Shown: positions 35,521 to 41,555 of the stretch, piece by piece
How positions within the stretch are numbered: the first letter of the stretch is position 1
Layout of the letters: each line of letters opens with the position of its first letter
DNA from: Candidatus Multivoradales bacterium
GTDB taxonomy: Bacteria > Acidobacteriota > Thermoanaerobaculia > Multivoradales > J023
Assembly: GCA_965250305.1 (NCBI GenBank)
Contig: CBDFNS010000023.1
Location: 182,623 to 246,622 of the forward strand
Length of the DNA: 64,000 nt
Direction: 5' to 3'
Translations under genes and position numbers: made by a program
The notes under the pieces: generated by a model
What the model was told of the DNA's origin: nothing
The model's database searches: none
The model's input: the letters and a program-made list of their open reading frames with translations, nothing else

Positions 35521-35917
35521 TTACTCCCCAGTCGCGCTACCCGATTCGGTGGACGCCTCGGTTTTTTCGTCCATGGCCAGAGCGAGCTGGTCGAGGATCA
35601 TCACGATGTATCCGAGGTCGGCCAGCGCCCGGTCACCTGGGCCCCAGTCGTCATCGGCCGGTTGCTGGTCGTCGCCGGGCCCGGAAGGTGAATCGTCTTG
35701 GTTCGTAGCCATTTTCTGCAGGGCGTCAGCGAGACGATGCAGGCTCTCCGACAGGTAGTCCAGGTGAACGGTGGCCAAGCCGTTGGGACTCCAGTCGTCG
35801 TCCGGCGGTGGTTGCTCCTTGATCGGTTTGTCCGCGATCCGTGCCAACGGTTGTTCGAGTTGAGCCAGCGTACGCTGCAATGCAGCGACCCTTTCGAGGA
35901 TCTTGGTGGTTTTCATC
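35521..35917 (-). CDS. Acidic hypothetical protein with an internal duplication (DDDWxPxG...LxxLxxALxxM twice)
   Basis: ORF 35521..35955, with the start placed at MKTTKILERV (ATG 35917). No domain was recognised. Confidence 0.35.
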
Positions 35918-36156
35918 GGCGACACCTCGGACCTAATCGCCGACGCCGTCGTCATCGTCGGCGGGCTGTTGCGGGGCGGAATCGTCTTGGGGTCGGGGTT
36001 TCTGCCAGACCAGAAGGTTGGCGGATCGGCTGTCGGCGTCCAGACTGAGCATCGTCATCGGGTCCAGCATTGCTTGTTCTCCCAGGGTCTAGGTTGCGGG
36101 TTGTATAGCCCTAAATCCCATAGGCGCCGGTTTGTTTAGGTCGAGAACGTCGATGG

Positions 36157-39100
36157 TCAACGCCACTCGCCTTGGAGGACGAAGCCGGCCCAGTAGTAGG
36201 GTGCTGACCACGCGGGCTCCCGCAGCAACTCGCGCTGCGCGCGGCGGAGCGCCGCGCCTGCCGCCAGACCGTCGACCAAGAGTGCCTGATAGAAGCGCGC
36301 CATGAGCTCCGCCGTGGCGCGATCATCGACCGGCCACAAGCTGACCAGCAGGCGTTCTGCGCCAGCATGGAAGAAGCCATGGGTGAGCCCGACCAAGCCT
36401 TCGCCGGCCATCGCTTTTCCGAGTGCACTGCGGCAAGCGCTGAGTGTGACCAAGTCGGCGTTGAGTTCGAGGCCGTAGATCTCGTGCATGCGCAAGAAGC
36501 CGTCGATCGGCTCGCCTTGTTGGTCCAAGCTGGACAAGGCGATGCCGGAGAGTTGGGGCTCAGTGGTATTAATGATCGCGTGGGTGGCGAAGTGAACGAT
36601 CCGGAAGCCCGCGAGCGTGCCGTCCAAAATGGTATCCCGACGAGCGTCGAAGCCGATGGCCGCCCAACGCCGGTCGGGGTGCGCGTGGGCGAGGATGGCG
36701 TCGGCCTCCCGCGTGGTGAAGGGCAGACGCCGGAATGGTGCCCCAGGCTGATCGATGGCCTCGGGCGCACTGGGGAAGGGCTCCAGCCGGACTCGACTGT
36801 CGCCGAGGCTGAAGACTGGATCGGCCACGACCGCCACCAATCCTGATGGCGTTGCACGGCCGGCCCGATGGCGCCGCAGCACGGCCAGCACCGAGGCCGA
36901 CGGAAGATGCAGCACCTCGTGCGATTCGACCAGCGGCGCGGCGTCGTGGCAATGGTCGAGTTGGGCTGGATCCGGCAAGGCGGCAAGAGGCAGTGTCCGT
37001 AAGGCTCCGTCTGCGGCGATGAGCAGGCGGCGGCTATCGAGCACGGCTGCAGCAGGTGCCAGCACCAGACGGGTCAGGGCGCACAGCGCTTCGCGGCCAG
37101 CCACGGCGGTCTCCCGGCGGGCACTGCGTTGGAGCAGTGCATGGGCGCGTTGGGCCACGGGTTCCACGATGTGACGTGGCGGCAGCTCGAAGCTGTGCAG
37201 GGTGTCGTTGCCGAGTACCCACAAATAGCTCGCTTGGTCACCGAGCCAGTACTCGAGCAACAGGGTGTGCTCGTCGAGCAAGTCGCGTTGCAACTCCGTG
37301 GGGCTCAGTGGCTGAGGCTCGGCGAAGTCGCCGGACTGGCTACGGCTGGCGCGGATCTCGTCGGTAACGGCGGTCAGGGCTTCCAGGTTGTCGCGAAAGC
37401 GACGTTGGGCCGCGATGTGTTGGACGCGGGTGGTACCGCTCCTGTTGTCTTCGTTGGCAAGAATCTGGAGCTGGCTGGCGCTCTTGCTGAGGGCATGTCC
37501 GAGTGCCTGCTCCCGGCTCAGGAGCGCGGGATCGGCACCTCGACGAAGCTCGGTGCCGGTCGCCGCGAGTAGATCCAGCAACGAGCGGGCGCGGGCTCGC
37601 TCGCTTGCCGCCAACCCCTGCCGATCCCAACCACCGGATGGACTGCGCCGGTGTTGGTCCATGGCGATGGCCATCTCCAAGGTGTAAGCGTCCTGAACGG
37701 TGGCGGTGGCGAGATACGAGGTACGTCGCGCCGTCGCCAGGGCGCGTCCGCGCAGTGATTCGAAGATTGCCAGCGCATCGCGGACAGATGACCAGGCTTG
37801 ATCGAGCATGCCCATCCGGCGCTGTGCGGCGGCGATCGCGACCAGGACTTCGGCCTCGCCGGCAGGCTCACCGGTGTGGCGATGGAGGTTGAGTGCCCGG
37901 GCCAAGACGTCGAGCGCTTGCTCGGGGTGCCCGACCTGATTCTCAAGGGTACCGAGGAAGAGCAGGATGTGGGCCTCGGAGCGCCGATCGTTCAAAGCAC
38001 GCATGGTGGCAAGCGAGCGCTCAAAGGCACGGCGGGCGTCGTCATATTGGTCCAAACGCTGCTGGAGGCGGCCGATCCGGCTTTCGATTACGGCGGCGCC
38101 GTAGCGGTCGTCGGTGTTGGTCGCGTCCGGAACCAAGGTCAGACTCTCGTGGAAGTAGGCGAGGGCGGCAGCGTGGTTGCCGGTGGCTGCGGCCAAGCGG
38201 CCGAGTTGATCGAGCGTGGATGCCTCGCGGCGCCGGTCGCCGATCGCCTGGCGCAGGCGTAGGGCTTCCCGCAAGCGATCATGTGCGCGATCGTATTCTC
38301 CCAAGATTCGGTGCAGTCCGCCCAGGTTGTTCAAGACGGTCGCTTTGGCAGCTGCATCGTCGAGGCCGTTGATTCGGTCGAGTGCCTCCTGATAGGTCTC
38401 GATCGCGACCTGGAGCTTGCCGAGCCTGCGATAAGCGACGCCGAGGTTGGTGAGGGTAATCGCGACGCCACGGTCGTCGCCTGCCCGCCGGCGTAGCGCC
38501 ACGGCGCGCTGGTAGCCGGCCGCGGCGGCGGCCAAGTCACCCGCAAGGAAGTGGGCGCGGCCCAGGTTGTGCCAAGCCATGGCGCCGAGCGCGTCGTCGC
38601 CCAGACCTTGAAAGAGATTGGCAGCAGTGGCGCTATGGTCGGCGGCAGCGGCGAAATGCCGTCGACTTGCTTCGACCAGCCCCAGGCGGTGTTGGGCCGA
38701 CGCCTGTCCCCATTGATCGCCTAAGGCCCGCCAGCTGCCGAGGGCCTCGTGGTAGGCGACCGCGGCTTCGTCCTCCGCTCCCTGGTCGTAGAGCCGCTCG
38801 CCAGCTGCGAATGCCGTGTAGGCGCGCGCTTGCTGTCGGTCTTCGTCGGTCGCTGGCCGACACGCCTCAACCCGCAGCGCGTAGGTGCCGGTTTCCTGGC
38901 TGGCGAGCGCGCGGACGATCATGTGGTGGGGCCCAGTCTCTCGCGCGATCAACGCCACCCGCTCGCGACCGAATTCCTCGGTCGGCCCGTCCGCGACCAA
39001 CAGGGCCTCGCTGGCGGGGGCAGCCATGGTGACTTCGACGTCAGTACCGTGTTGCTCGACCACGATCCGCAAGAACATGCCAGCGTCGAGATCGACATCG

Positions 39101-39300
39101 TAGCGATGGATTTCTTCCGCGTCGATCGCGCGCTCTACAGCCTCGCCCGCCGCTGGCAGTGTCCTGATATCGGCGGGCGGTGCAGGTTCCTTGATGGGCT
39201 GCTCAACGACGGTCGTGCGCTCGTGGCCGCAGGCGATGGTGCAAAGCGCCGCGGTCAGCCAGGCAGCGAGGAAGGTGTTCGGCCGGATGCGGCCGGCCAT
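36157..39300 (-). CDS. TPR-repeat protein with a C-terminal CHAT (caspase-like) peptidase domain
   Basis: Multiple TPRs (AxxxYxxALxLxxxxGD repeats). The C-terminus has HFATHAI ... LVTLSACRS, the His/Cys dyad of the CHAT domain. Its start overlaps the anti-sigma stop (TAATG). Confidence 0.85.
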   Translation of the reverse strand: MAGRIRPNTFLAAWLTAALCTIACGHERTTVVEQPIKEPAPPADIRTLPAAGEAVERAIDAEEIHRYDVDLDAGMFLRIVVEQHGTDVEVTMAAPASEALLVADGPTEEFGRERVALIARETGPHHMIVRALASQETGTYALRVEACRPATDEDRQQARAYTAFAAGERLYDQGAEDEAAVAYHEALGSWRALGDQWGQASAQHRLGLVEASRRHFAAAADHSATAANLFQGLGDDALGAMAWHNLGRAHFLAGDLAAAAAGYQRAVALRRRAGDDRGVAITLTNLGVAYRRLGKLQVAIETYQEALDRINGLDDAAAKATVLNNLGGLHRILGEYDRAHDRLREALRLRQAIGDRRREASTLDQLGRLAAATGNHAAALAYFHESLTLVPDATNTDDRYGAAVIESRIGRLQQRLDQYDDARRAFERSLATMRALNDRRSEAHILLFLGTLENQVGHPEQALDVLARALNLHRHTGEPAGEAEVLVAIAAAQRRMGMLDQAWSSVRDALAIFESLRGRALATARRTSYLATATVQDAYTLEMAIAMDQHRRSPSGGWDRQGLAASERARARSLLDLLAATGTELRRGADPALLSREQALGHALSKSASQLQILANEDNRSGTTRVQHIAAQRRFRDNLEALTAVTDEIRASRSQSGDFAEPQPLSPTELQRDLLDEHTLLLEYWLGDQASYLWVLGNDTLHSFELPPRHIVEPVAQRAHALLQRSARRETAVAGREALCALTRLVLAPAAAVLDSRRLLIAADGALRTLPLAALPDPAQLDHCHDAAPLVESHEVLHLPSASVLAVLRRHRAGRATPSGLVAVVADPVFSLGDSRVRLEPFPSAPEAIDQPGAPFRRLPFTTREADAILAHAHPDRRWAAIGFDARRDTILDGTLAGFRIVHFATHAIINTTEPQLSGIALSSLDQQGEPIDGFLRMHEIYGLELNADLVTLSACRSALGKAMAGEGLVGLTHGFFHAGAERLLVSLWPVDDRATAELMARFYQALLVDGLAAGAALRRAQRELLREPAWSAPYYWAGFVLQGEWR

Positions 39301-40148
39301 TAGCCGGCGACCACCTGTAATGCGCGATCGTCGAGCATGGCGGTGTCGTCGCCGAACAGGCGGACACGGTAGTCACCCGGGGGTAAGAAGCGGCGGGACA
39401 GCGCCACCCGCAAGGTTCCGTGATCGCTCACCGTAAGGCCATCGCTCGACCACCGTCGAGTGCCCGTGTGATCAAGTACCTCGACCCGAAAGGGACCGTC
39501 TCCGGCATCGAGCGGAGGCGTCAAGATGACGATAAACAGCGGGCGCTCAGGGTGGACAACCACGGTAGGAATGGCCTCGAGATCGCGGGTGATGGCATCG
39601 AGATAGACCATGCCGACGCCGGCCTGCGGCGCTTCGAGCACGGCAATCGTCGTACGCAGGTCGGCAGCCTCGCGGCCTATGTCCATCACCTGCCAAGCGA
39701 GGCCGGCGACCGTTGCTAGCAGAACTGCAGCCAACGCCCACGGCAATACCGGCATCGATGCCGCGCGCTTCTTGGATTTGGGGAGAATGGCGAGGACTTC
39801 GGTCGTCTCGTAGGGCGGGGATTCGAGGCTGCTACGCAGCTTGCCCCAGACAGCTTCACGTTCGAACTCCACCGCGTTGCCGGGCAGATCGGTCGTGGCC
39901 TCGAATCCCGCGGCCAGGTCGGCGATCAGATCCGAACAGACAGAGCAGGCGACCAGATGATCTTGCGTCCGTACTGCTTCACCGTCCGAGAGGGTGCCTT
40001 CGTGGTACCCCACCAAGACCTCGGGATCGAGGTGTCCGCCGTCGGACCCGAGTGGGTCGCGCGACCGTGCGGTTGCCGCCAGCGCGGCACCAAGGATAGG
40101 TTCGTGGGCTTCGCTCACTGCTGATCGCTTTGTCTCTTCATGGTGCAA
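39300..40148 (-). CDS. Membrane-spanning zinc anti-sigma factor (zf-HC2)
   Basis: HLVACSVCSDL motif, a central TM segment (LPWALAAVLLATVAGLAW), and its position between the ECF sigma and CHAT genes. Confidence 0.65.
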   Translation of the reverse strand: MHHEETKRSAVSEAHEPILGAALAATARSRDPLGSDGGHLDPEVLVGYHEGTLSDGEAVRTQDHLVACSVCSDLIADLAAGFEATTDLPGNAVEFEREAVWGKLRSSLESPPYETTEVLAILPKSKKRAASMPVLPWALAAVLLATVAGLAWQVMDIGREAADLRTTIAVLEAPQAGVGMVYLDAITRDLEAIPTVVVHPERPLFIVILTPPLDAGDGPFRVEVLDHTGTRRWSSDGLTVSDHGTLRVALSRRFLPPGDYRVRLFGDDTAMLDDRALQVVAG

Positions 40149-40809
40149 CTTCGAGCGTGGACAGACGGTCTTTGAGTCGCTTGCGGGCCTGGAACAGGTG
40201 GACCTTGACGGTGTCGACCGAGATCCGCATCAAGTTGGCGATCTCGCGGTACTTCAGATCTTGGTAGATCCGCAGGGTCAGGCACTTGCGCATCTGATCG
40301 GGCAGTTCGTCGACCGCGCGCGCCAACCGGGCTCGGCGCTCGTCGGCCAAGACGTTCTCGAGCTGGTCCCCAGGGGTGGCCAGCGTCATCTCGCTCGGCA
40401 GGTCTTCGTGGGCGACCTCGTCGCCGTCGCGTTTGGCGGTATGCCGCGCGCGCAAGCGTTTGAGATAGGTGGTGGTTGCAATCTTGAATAGCCATGTCTC
40501 GAACCGTGCTTCGCGGCGGTACGTCCCCAAACCTCTATAGATCCCAAGAAACGTTTCTTGTGTTAGATCGAGACTGTCCGCGGCCGAAAAGCCCTTGCGG
40601 CCGAAGAAGCGGCGAACGGCAGGGAAGTACAGATCGAAAATCGCCCGAAAGGCGGCCTCGGGATCTTGGGCCGATTGGAAAGCGTCGATCGCGCGGTCCA
40701 CTCGACGTGGCTTGCCATCGGCCGCGCAAACGGCACCCGGTGTCGATGCGACGCAATTCGATTCCACCGATGTCTTCCTTGTATGAGGTGAGGATTCAGT
40801 ATGCCACAT
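40138..40809 (-). CDS. ECF RNA polymerase sigma factor
   Basis: Region 2 (LTQETFLGIYRGL) and region 4 (YREIANLMRISVDTVKVHLFQARKRL). ATG at 40809. Confidence 0.85.
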   Translation of the reverse strand: MWHTESSPHTRKTSVESNCVASTPGAVCAADGKPRRVDRAIDAFQSAQDPEAAFRAIFDLYFPAVRRFFGRKGFSAADSLDLTQETFLGIYRGLGTYRREARFETWLFKIATTTYLKRLRARHTAKRDGDEVAHEDLPSEMTLATPGDQLENVLADERRARLARAVDELPDQMRKCLTLRIYQDLKYREIANLMRISVDTVKVHLFQARKRLKDRLSTLEVAP

Positions 40810-40979
40810 CTTTATGGCAGCCCGGCCGATCGAGCCCGCGTGAGCGATGGCACTGCCCGTGACTGCAAACCTTCTGGGTAGCGCGACCGTAATAAGCACA
40901 CCATCACGAATCCTTGACCACCAAGGCGTTCCTTGCGAGGGACTTCGACGTCGAGGTGCTACCAGCAGGAGATCTCAGA

Positions 40980-41555
40980 ATGGAACGTCCGGCACTACTC
41001 GAACATACGCCACCCATTGCGAGACCCGCCGCGTCCGAATACGACGACTTTTACCATGGTTACGTGGACCAGGTCCCCGCTGGCGATGTCCTCGGGGTGC
41101 TTGGATCGAGCGTTGAGGAAACGTTGGGGTTGCTCCGTGAGCTACCGGAATCGTGGCAGCGCTATCGCTATGAGTCGGGGAAGTGGACCATCAACGAGAT
41201 CATCGGGCACGTGATCGACGCCGAGCGGGCCTTCGCCTACCGGGCTTTGTGCATGGCCCGTGGTGAGCAAGGCGACCTCCCCGCTTTCGACCAGGACGGC
41301 TACGCAGCGGTGTCGAACGCCGCCTCGCGACCGTCGGCGGCGTTGCTCGGCGAGCTGGCGTCGGTGCGGCGGGCGTCGTTGACCTTGTTTGCCAGCTTCG
41401 ACGATCAGGCGCTCGCGCAATCAGGTAGGGCGAGCGGCTTTCCGTTTACGGTCCGCACATTCCCGTTCATCATTGCGGGTCACGAGATCCACCATCGCCG
41501 GGTGATCGAGAAGCGATACTTGGCCGAGTTGAAGGACGTGGGCTTTTCTGGATAG
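40980..41555 (+). CDS. DinB/YfiT-like (DinB_2) metal-dependent four-helix-bundle protein
   Basis: WTINEIIGHVIDAER ... IAGHEIHHRRVI His-triad pattern. Confidence 0.65.
   Translation: MERPALLEHTPPIARPAASEYDDFYHGYVDQVPAGDVLGVLGSSVEETLGLLRELPESWQRYRYESGKWTINEIIGHVIDAERAFAYRALCMARGEQGDLPAFDQDGYAAVSNAASRPSAALLGELASVRRASLTLFASFDDQALAQSGRASGFPFTVRTFPFIIAGHEIHHRRVIEKRYLAELKDVGFSG

Follow-up and report, generated by a model that had tools for sequence, protein, structure and literature searches.

A split ECF sigma, anti-sigma and TPR-CHAT module of an Acidobacteriota-type genome related to the Myxococcus DdvS/DdvA system

In this work we describe a three-gene signalling module in the genome of a Candidatus Multivoradales bacterium (Acidobacteriota; GenBank assembly GCA_965250305.1, contig CBDFNS010000023.1, positions 182,623 to 246,622). 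The whole stretch of 64,000 nucleotides is called the window here, and coordinates are counted from its first letter. The module encodes a sigma factor of the extracytoplasmic function (ECF) type, a single-pass anti-sigma factor of the zinc type and a protein that joins tetratricopeptide repeats (TPR) to a CHAT domain, and it is a split relative of the DdvS/DdvA system of Myxococcus. As to its function, we give roughly even chances to the reading that we prefer, in which the TPR-CHAT protein is the periplasmic partner of the anti-sigma factor, either in sensing or as its site-1 protease. We hypothesize that the anti-sigma factor would hold the sigma factor at the membrane with an immunoglobulin-like (Ig-like) domain facing the periplasm, and that the exported, probably lipid-anchored TPR-CHAT protein would work on that side as its sensing partner. 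A signal, probably a protein, would be bound by the TPR or the beta-sandwich part, and the caspase-like His/Cys site would cut the periplasmic part of the anti-sigma factor (site-1 cleavage), for which a near-invariant arginine, Arg178, is the candidate site. This cut would expose the anti-sigma factor to intramembrane proteolysis and the sigma factor would be freed.

Several observations favour this input, regulatory role of the TPR-CHAT protein. Its predicted leader should put it in the periplasm together with the C-terminal domain of the anti-sigma factor, and the constant neighbour of the CHAT genes is one anti-sigma family, as against three clusters of sigma factors. In addition, the gene order flips among related loci, and in one subgroup a promoter-like sequence (TGCTAGAAT) lies between CHAT and sigma. 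In DdvA the TPR-CHAT part is physically a portion of the anti-sigma factor (PMC11506125). The model of an input partner draws likewise on the sigma factor itself, which is of the RpoE/AlgU/SigW kind. Context suggests a physical interaction between the TPR-CHAT protein and the anti-sigma factor, its cleavage and Arg178 as the site.

In DdvA, a zinc anti-sigma domain is fused to a periplasmic TPR-CHAT part, and its authors propose CHAT as the site-1 protease acting before RseP; removal of the TPR-CHAT part exposes the anti-sigma to RseP, and the first cut by CHAT was proposed without proof (PMC11506125). The module described here and DdvS/DdvA (PMC11506125, PMC6061681) are alike in having an ECF sigma factor with a single-pass anti-sigma factor that carries an N-terminal zinc-type domain, in a TPR-CHAT part with a His/Cys dyad on the periplasmic side (here predicted from sequence), and in fold, the DdvA structures 8rw5 and 8rot being matched at an E-value of about 1e-14. 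They also raise the same question, that is, whether CHAT is the site-1 protease ahead of RseP; for the present module, a two-step release of the RseP type is suggested by the architecture and by analogy with DdvA. They differ in several respects. Unlike in DdvA, the TPR-CHAT protein of the module is a separate polypeptide that has a predicted signal peptide of its own and, in addition, an N-terminal beta-sandwich, and the anti-sigma factor is short (272 amino acids, aa) and ends in the Ig-like domain. The CHAT domain of the module covers the complete Pfam profile, whereas that of DdvA is described without three helices. No cyclic-oligonucleotide-based anti-phage signalling system (CBASS) or CRISPR (clustered regularly interspaced short palindromic repeats) island adjoins the module among the inspected open reading frames (ORFs) of the window or in the PADLOC results. 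Finally, the module is found in Acidobacteriota-type genomes, whereas reports of fused DdvA-like anti-sigma factors are limited to Myxococcota and one Comamonas, and only a subset of the DdvA-like pairs lies near defence systems (PMC11506125).

The ORF listing places three co-directional ORFs on the minus strand at 36157-40899, where the preliminary description had located them. The sigma gene (40138..40767) encodes 209 aa, from GTG 40767 to a TGA stop at 40140-40138; the anti-sigma gene (39300..40118) encodes 272 aa from GTG 40118; and the TPR-CHAT gene (36157..39300) encodes 1047 aa from an ATG within a TAATG junction. That junction, read at 39302-39298 as had been claimed, has one base common to the anti-sigma stop (TAA, 39302-39300) and the CHAT start (ATG, 39300-39298). 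The GTGA overlap that had been described between sigma and anti-sigma is a misreading, since the stop of the sigma gene and the recorded anti-sigma start are separated by a 19-nucleotide (nt) spacer. The public collection record of the anti-sigma factor is the 272-aa product read from GTG 40118 (P0121), and the sole alternative start, TTG 40148, lies upstream and would overlap the sigma gene by 11 nt. Similarly, the sigma start, and with it the end of the feature, had been set at ATG 40809, an in-frame upstream alternative. The product on public record is the one of 209 aa starting at GTG 40767, and the 223-aa product of ATG 40809 has no record, so the feature ends at 40767; AAGGAAG stands 6 nt 5' of this GTG. 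Intrinsic terminators were sought between the three genes and none was found, which makes their co-transcription very likely; the operon structure and the gene identities first proposed are correct.

Regarding the sigma factor, only two regions are present, matched by Pfam Sigma70_r2 (46.4 bits) and Sigma70_r4_2 (55.8 bits), and the NCBIfam model TIGR02937 (sigma70-ECF) is matched at 95.5 bits against a cut-off of 42.9. An anti-sigma factor is encoded directly 3' of it, with the same pairing in 21 related loci, and by its sequence the gene is classed as an ECF (group IV) sigma-70 factor. Its nearest solved sequences are AlgU, RpoE and SigW, which is a first likeness to the RpoE/RseA/RseB/DegS/RseP, AlgU/MucA and SigW/RsiW/PrsW systems. 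All three of these sigma factors are released through regulated proteolysis of a single-pass anti-sigma factor. As in RseA, MucA and RsiW, the anti-sigma factor of the module spans the membrane once and has an N-terminal sigma-binding domain and, as in the case of RseB, a periplasmic protein (here predicted) is encoded in the same operon. Unlike DegS, a PDZ serine protease, and PrsW, a membrane metalloprotease, the candidate site-1 protease of the module belongs to the clan-CD cysteine peptidases and has a TPR array; and unlike in the RseA-type systems, the periplasmic domain of the anti-sigma factor is an uncharacterised Ig-like fold.

The intergenic region before the sigma gene (40768..40979, 212 bp) is the presumed promoter region and is shared with a divergent gene of the DinB_2 family (40980-41555, plus strand). 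A search for an ECF promoter of the GGAAC...CGT type, which had been suggested as a check, did find a GGAAC-N19-CGT element at 40932-40906, 5' of the sigma gene and with an atypical 19-nt spacer, but such matches occur at chance level in the window (16 found against 15.2 expected), and in six orthologous upstream regions the element was absent or placed differently. A 7-mer enrichment analysis of nine upstream regions gave results no better than shuffles and no motif in common. No match to a sigma-70 consensus promoter was found in 40768..40979; the region holds a -10-like element, TG-n-TTATTA.

The cytoplasmic domain of the anti-sigma factor (39822..40034, aa 29-99) carries the complete zinc-ligand motif H29-x24-H54-x3-C58-x2-C61, verified at the codon level, together with W91. 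Among 152 family representatives, on which all conservation figures for this protein are based, each of the four putative ligands is 89% conserved and W91 97%, and HxxxCxxC is present in 135. Family matches fall below the cut-offs, both for Pfam zf-HC2 (16.8 bits, under a cut-off of 22.2) and for the NCBIfam anti-sigma models ('antisigma' NF052375 at 33.9 bits), and the zinc label therefore rests on the ligand motif. The earlier designation as a zinc anti-sigma factor stands as far as the H/H/C/C motif and the one transmembrane segment are concerned, and is not borne out by a zf-HC2 family match. The ability to bind zinc and to sequester the sigma factor is putative. The transmembrane segment, MPVLPWALAAVLLATVAGLAWQVM (39684..39755, aa 122-145), is preceded on the cytoplasmic side by KSKKR. 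Because of the positive-inside rule, and because the anti-sigma domain must bind the sigma factor in the cytoplasm, we infer an N-in/C-out topology with the Ig-like domain in the periplasm.

This predicted periplasmic beta-sandwich (39303..39626, aa 165-272) contains the Arg178 codon at 39587-39585. In the AlphaFold2 model, the N-terminal helices (32-40, 45-57, 59-71 and 80-99; predicted local distance difference test score, pLDDT, 72-78) and a long helix (126-160) are followed by the C-terminal beta domain, with eight strands over 169-271 at pLDDT 75-91. A fold search with this domain returned only generic Ig-like matches, no Pfam family matched it, and the anti-sigma factor had no match among PDB sequences. 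Arg178 is the most conserved residue of the protein (98% of the representatives), within the motif L-x-x-x-x-R and between the predicted strands 169-174 and 185-189. It is a candidate cleavage or contact site, as a hypothesis only.

As for the TPR-CHAT protein, direct reading predicts an N-terminal signal peptide, MAGRIRPNTFLAAWLTAALCTIAC (39229..39300, aa 1-24), whose hydrophobic segment is closed by a lipobox-like TIAC followed by G. The leaders of close orthologs also end in a lipobox, as in L047 (LLAAC followed by G) and L076 (LCAC followed by A; L numbers denote loci), and a hydrophobic 12-mer stands just before the N-terminal beta domain in 47 of the 50 relatives that have this domain. 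On account of its signal peptide with a lipobox-like end and of the leaders in these relatives, the CHAT protein should be periplasmic, and we predict that it is exported and probably lipid-anchored. The leader is followed by the N-terminal beta-sandwich (38854..39168, aa 45-149), by a TPR superhelix with a helical linker (37348..38847, aa 152-651), in which Pfam TPR_12 matches four stretches and TPR_MalT is also matched, and by the CHAT domain, of clan CD and caspase fold (36160..37302, aa 667-1047). The AlphaFold2 model (pLDDT 88.9, predicted template modelling score 0.87) has the same order, with a helix at 7-25, a disordered linker, the beta-sandwich at 45-149 (strands with pLDDT >90), a superhelix of paired helices at 152-651 and CHAT at 667-1047. 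The beta-sandwich has no Pfam family; it is specific to the Acidobacteriota-type subfamily, being conserved in the subfamily alignment and absent from cyanobacterial relatives.

Pfam CHAT (PF12770) matches aa 737-1045 with an E-value of 1.9e-64 and 218 bits (cut-off 24 bits), over profile positions 2-289 of 289. The key residues, all verified at the codon level, are H903 (36594-36592), H907 (36582-36580) and C956 (36435-36433). The last is the Cys of LVTLSACRS, found without exception in 36 of 36 homologs, and both His residues are at least 90% conserved; the choice of the catalytic one of the two is made by analogy only. The full-profile match and these three conserved residues give the impression of an intact active site, and peptidase activity is predicted. 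The His/Cys dyad of the preliminary description, including the Cys that it singled out, is thereby upheld, and its conservation in orthologs, named beforehand as a point on which the proposal could fail, holds in the homologs at the levels just given.

A Foldseek search of the PDB with the CHAT protein retrieved separase (E-value 3e-15), the TPR-CHAT protein of craspase (template modelling score, normalised to the target, 0.54-0.56) and Myxococcus DdvA, 8rw5 at rank 4 (E-value 1.7e-14) and 8rot at rank 9. In sequence searches against the PDB, the full-length protein matched only TPR proteins and the CHAT domain alone had no match. A profile of the CHAT domain gave weak matches in which the Cys region was aligned with Csx29 and with the LMGC segment of the C. 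thermophilum separase, which we take to contain the catalytic Cys. The protein of the module shares its architecture with separase and the craspase subunit Csx29, namely a CHAT caspase-fold domain that carries a His/Cys dyad and is preceded by a TPR superhelix, and in those enzymes activity is gated allosterically by a bound partner. They are, however, cytoplasmic or nuclear, with securin, or Cas7-11 and RNA, doing the gating, whereas the CHAT protein of the module is predicted to be exported, carries the N-terminal beta-sandwich and is encoded together with an anti-sigma factor. Separase is strictly specific for Arg at P1, cleaving after this residue, and its P1-binding Asp lies 41 residues after the catalytic Cys (PMC10317155). 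An Arg specificity of the module's CHAT domain through an S1 pocket of the separase type was considered and is not claimed; by our own residue count, this Asp has no cleanly aligned, invariant acidic counterpart here, D993 lying at +37 and E998 at +42.

The conservation of the neighbourhood was studied from both sides of the module. Iterated profile searches with the CHAT protein led to a sample of 84 loci, that is, 83 fetched loci and the window. The best non-self homologs (33-41% identity) belong to Acidobacteriota-type metagenome-assembled genomes of Holophagales, Thermoanaerobaculia, Blastocatellia and Pyrinomonadaceae; cyanobacterial proteins, without the N-terminal beta domain, match as well. 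In 21 of the 84 loci the CHAT gene is adjoined by one anti-sigma family and an ECF sigma factor. The order is sigma, anti-sigma, CHAT in the window and in L004, L005, L006, L047, L055, L072, L075 and L076, and also in L028, where the CHAT gene follows only after about 1.6 kb; it is CHAT, sigma, anti-sigma in L001, L002, L026, L034, L040, L046, L054, L074 and L082, and the genes have opposed orientations in L021 and L029. All-against-all clustering of the neighbouring ORFs showed that this anti-sigma family is the commonest neighbour of the CHAT genes. When the CHAT-adjacent genes were clustered by BLAST, the anti-sigma factors formed one cluster and the sigma factors three, and the C-terminal beta domain is common to all 21 CHAT-adjacent anti-sigma factors. 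A particular arrangement was observed in L001, L054 and L074, where a GNAT acetyltransferase gene, CHAT, a conserved 153-aa protein, sigma and anti-sigma follow one another (L001 5446-11371). The GNAT gene has a Pfam Acetyltransf_1 match in L001 and homologous sequence upstream in the other two loci, and the 153-aa protein has no Pfam match and ends in LFGSTTYGDPDQVAVWGGSG. In these three loci, a short hairpin and a conserved sigma-70-like extended -10 element, the TGCTAGAAT sequence mentioned above, stand immediately 5' of the sigma gene.

From the other side, a profile search with the anti-sigma factor yielded 11,289 proteins at E <= 0.001, 3,322 at E <= 1e-10, counted as cluster representatives, and 188 at E <= 1e-30. 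None of the best 150 of the 11,289 matches is fused to CHAT, all of them being 241-369 aa long, and word-indexed searches for fused anti-sigma/CHAT proteins gave 5 and 13 matches, none with a CHAT domain. A TPR-CHAT gene lies directly downstream of the anti-sigma gene in five of six informative loci (L084, L089, L092/93, L094 and L095); two further contigs were too short to be informative. A metagenome scan yielded no more than two loci. When the distance matrices of the sigma and anti-sigma factors were compared with those of the CHAT protein domains, Mantel correlations of r 0.30-0.56 (p <= 0.002) were obtained, and nearest neighbours mostly stay in the same gene-order class. The three genes diversify together.

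Several points speak against the role of the TPR-CHAT protein as sensing or cleaving partner of the anti-sigma factor. The mechanism is inferred from context alone, and even for DdvA cleavage by CHAT is unproven, mutants of its dyad being without phenotype (PMC11506125). The likeness to DdvA is at the level of the fold only, with about 14% identity; the CHAT sequence profile missed DdvA, and neither single-sequence nor profile searches of PDB sequences retrieved it. Ala, and not the consensus Gly, follows H907, which is also the case in a few further members of the family; the invariant Arg178 could be structural; and export was judged by eye and hydropathy, not by a trained predictor. The Mantel correlations can come from shared phylogeny alone. 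For about half of the CHAT paralogs of the Acidobacteriota type, neither a sigma nor an anti-sigma gene lies within 8 kb, and in L086, L087 and L088 a relative of the anti-sigma factor is followed by an unrelated 461-aa protein instead of TPR-CHAT. Because of these two observations, the pairing of CHAT with the anti-sigma factor is frequent and not obligatory. The gene of the 461-aa protein (L086 4666-6051) overlaps the anti-sigma gene by 4 nt and matches no Pfam family, and its product may be an alternative periplasmic partner of the anti-sigma factor. Lastly, the CHAT gene of the window lies downstream of sigma and anti-sigma, which fits an autoregulated output gene equally well.

This last point introduces the alternative that we regard as possible, though clearly less probable than an input role, namely that the TPR-CHAT protein is an output effector and a target of the ECF sigma factor. 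It would then be an exported protease that degrades envelope or extracellular proteins and not the anti-sigma factor, and envelope stress would free the sigma factor by another route. CHAT follows sigma and anti-sigma directly in the window, and the same holds for about half of the related loci; given the TAATG coupling and the lack of a terminator in the window, any autoregulated ECF promoter would drive its expression. The GGAAC-N19-CGT element 5' of the sigma gene would agree with this, and the many CHAT paralogs without sigma and anti-sigma indicate that the protease has functions independent of them. Nevertheless, that promoter-like motif is no more frequent than chance would give and lacks conservation, and control of CHAT by the ECF factor is not obvious in the loci where CHAT comes first, among them L001, L054 and L074, with GNAT before CHAT and TGCTAGAAT before sigma. 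Moreover, the constant partner of CHAT is the periplasmic domain of the anti-sigma factor and not the sigma factor, and the fused DdvA has TPR-CHAT in the sensor. A stress-activated proteolytic output had been proposed in the preliminary description; the gene identities, the operon and the dyad on which it drew stand, and the output role itself is less supported than the input role.

It is also conceivable, although we think it quite unlikely, that the TPR-CHAT protein is a non-proteolytic periplasmic modulator, which would shield the Ig-like domain as RseB shields RseA or would act as a ligand-binding co-sensor. In that case the CHAT site would be inactive or otherwise used, and another protease would make the site-1 cut. 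The topology and the neighbourhood evidence are the same as for a proteolytic partner, TPR arrays are protein-binding modules, the dyad of DdvA is in a resting state and its H862A and C907A variants still repress DdvS, and the Ala after H907 points in the same direction. Against it stand the invariance of C956, the conservation of H903 and H907 and the match to the whole Pfam CHAT profile, which argues for retained catalysis.

That the protein is a cytoplasmic abortive-infection effector of the craspase or conflict type that merely adjoins the ECF pair is highly improbable: the TPR-CHAT protein of the type III-E CRISPR craspase is among the fold matches, and genes for C14 (L006, L076), C25-like (L055, L092) and TIR-TPR proteins follow CHAT in orthologous loci, but a signal peptide with a lipobox-like end is predicted for the CHAT protein, no cas or other defence genes were found among the ORFs inspected (roughly 31-46 kb of the window), PADLOC yields only a generic TPR match, and chance placement would not be expected to bring one anti-sigma family next to CHAT again and again, whichever of the two sides the search starts from.

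Other associations of CHAT with ECF sigma factors have been described. In Actinobacteria, genes for CHAT, carboxypeptidase and subtilase proteins lie near the sigma factors of group ECF54, for which proteolytic control has been proposed (PMC8999054). In that group, as here, a CHAT-domain protein recurs near an ECF sigma factor, but ECF54 is described without an anti-sigma factor, whereas the module has a dedicated and constant anti-sigma family (PMC8999054). The main text of the ECF re-classification paper makes no mention of CHAT, and the module may already be listed in ECF group descriptions. In the literature searched, only the DdvA papers tie TPR-CHAT to the periplasm or to an anti-sigma factor, and the split sigma/anti-sigma/TPR-CHAT module was not described.

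The separation of the candidate protease from the candidate substrate, which in DdvA are one polypeptide (PMC11506125), gives the split module its experimental interest. Cleavage, binding and specificity can thereby be tested directly with two purified proteins and point mutants, and what is at stake is the question raised by DdvA, whether release of the sigma factor begins with a cut by the caspase-like domain itself (PMC11506125). The module appears to be common, with an anti-sigma family of thousands of representatives that is the top neighbour of this CHAT subfamily. Its characterisation would show what many genes now lacking annotation do in the Acidobacteriota, a phylum that is dominant in soil and for which few genetic models exist, and would extend clan-CD proteases to trans-envelope signalling.

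With respect to the genes downstream of CHAT, two small acidic ORFs are present in the window on the minus strand (35521..36070), one of 45 aa (36070-35934) and one of 144 aa (35955-35521), and their membership of the module is uncertain. The 45-aa ORF has a GGGAG ribosome-binding site, and the 144-aa ORF has internal repeats of DDDW[SG]P followed by a stretch that resembles an amphipathic helix. Both may be part of the CHAT transcript, and the two could also be a single gene broken up by a frame change. No Pfam or PADLOC match was found for either, and no homology was found between the 144-aa product and the 153-aa protein of L001. Small hydrophilic ORFs, some of them with a motif rich in W-P, occupy the equivalent position in L092, L095, L076, L055, L084 and L047, homology not being established. 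Beyond the two acidic ORFs of the window lies a convergent gene for an RNB-domain protein; the genes near the module also include, besides the DinB_2 gene, those for a thiolase and for a 3-hydroxyacyl-CoA dehydrogenase/enoyl-CoA hydratase.

In loci with the order sigma, anti-sigma, CHAT, the CHAT gene is usually followed by a small hydrophilic ORF and then by a clan-CD peptidase or another gene. A Peptidase_C14 caspase is found there in L006 (11138-13183) and L076 (10631-12664), and a C25-like peptidase in L055 (11418-12812) and L092 (10368-11822), the latter followed in L092/93 by a TIR-TPR protein (L092, from 11819 onwards); in L047 and L084, a second ECF sigma factor lies downstream. The C14 and C25-like peptidases have no evident signal peptide. 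By analogy with the control of a defence island by DdvS, these peptidases could be outputs of the sigma regulon; alternatively, the orthologous loci may belong to a conflict-system neighbourhood. The window itself has no such peptidase genes downstream, only the two small acidic ORFs. A bolder proposal, which we consider rather doubtful, is that the module would be a widespread version of the DdvA sensor in two proteins. The periplasmic TPR-CHAT lipoprotein would sense an invading or envelope-derived protein and cleave the Ig-like domain of the anti-sigma factor at Arg178, intramembrane proteolysis would follow, and the freed sigma factor would induce cytoplasmic conflict effectors, namely the clan-CD caspase or C25-like peptidases and the TIR-TPR proteins of the orthologous loci. 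If this were true, caspase-fold proteases would act as both sensor and effector in a transmembrane relay of the immune type, and the fused DdvA of Myxococcus would be derived, as one special case, from within a far larger family, with the 3,322 anti-sigma cluster representatives at E <= 1e-10.

Some further observations were made on loci of the CHAT sample. Tandem duplicates of the TPR-CHAT gene occur in L004 (4684-11327), L027, L056 and L065; in L004, a single sigma/anti-sigma pair is followed by two TPR-CHAT copies. L073 (6031-12662) is the only cyanobacterial locus with a sigma/anti-sigma pair, which is oriented divergently to a CHAT gene of very large size, and GGAAC-N17-CGTC, an ECF-like element of textbook form, stands 5' of its sigma gene. 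CHAT paralogs of the same subfamily lie near sigma factors of the PF07638-like ECF type in L011, L031, L050 and L069 (and L053), and several such loci have, in addition, a Ser/Thr kinase and a secreted protein of about 316 aa close by. Judging from the PF07638-like loci L011, L031, L050 and L069, the CHAT genes of Acidobacteriota are associated with ECF circuits of more than one kind.

Finally, a second ECF pair is present on the minus strand of the window, with a sigma gene at 1446-2036 and a gene for an anti-sigma factor with a zinc motif at 856-1449, the latter without the Ig-like C-terminal domain. As had been noted earlier, this pair (856-2036) precedes a gene for a secreted protein, whose product has a clear signal peptide (MPRSSSIRPFHAYGVLAALAVATMAAPSSA...) and which runs off the start of the window.

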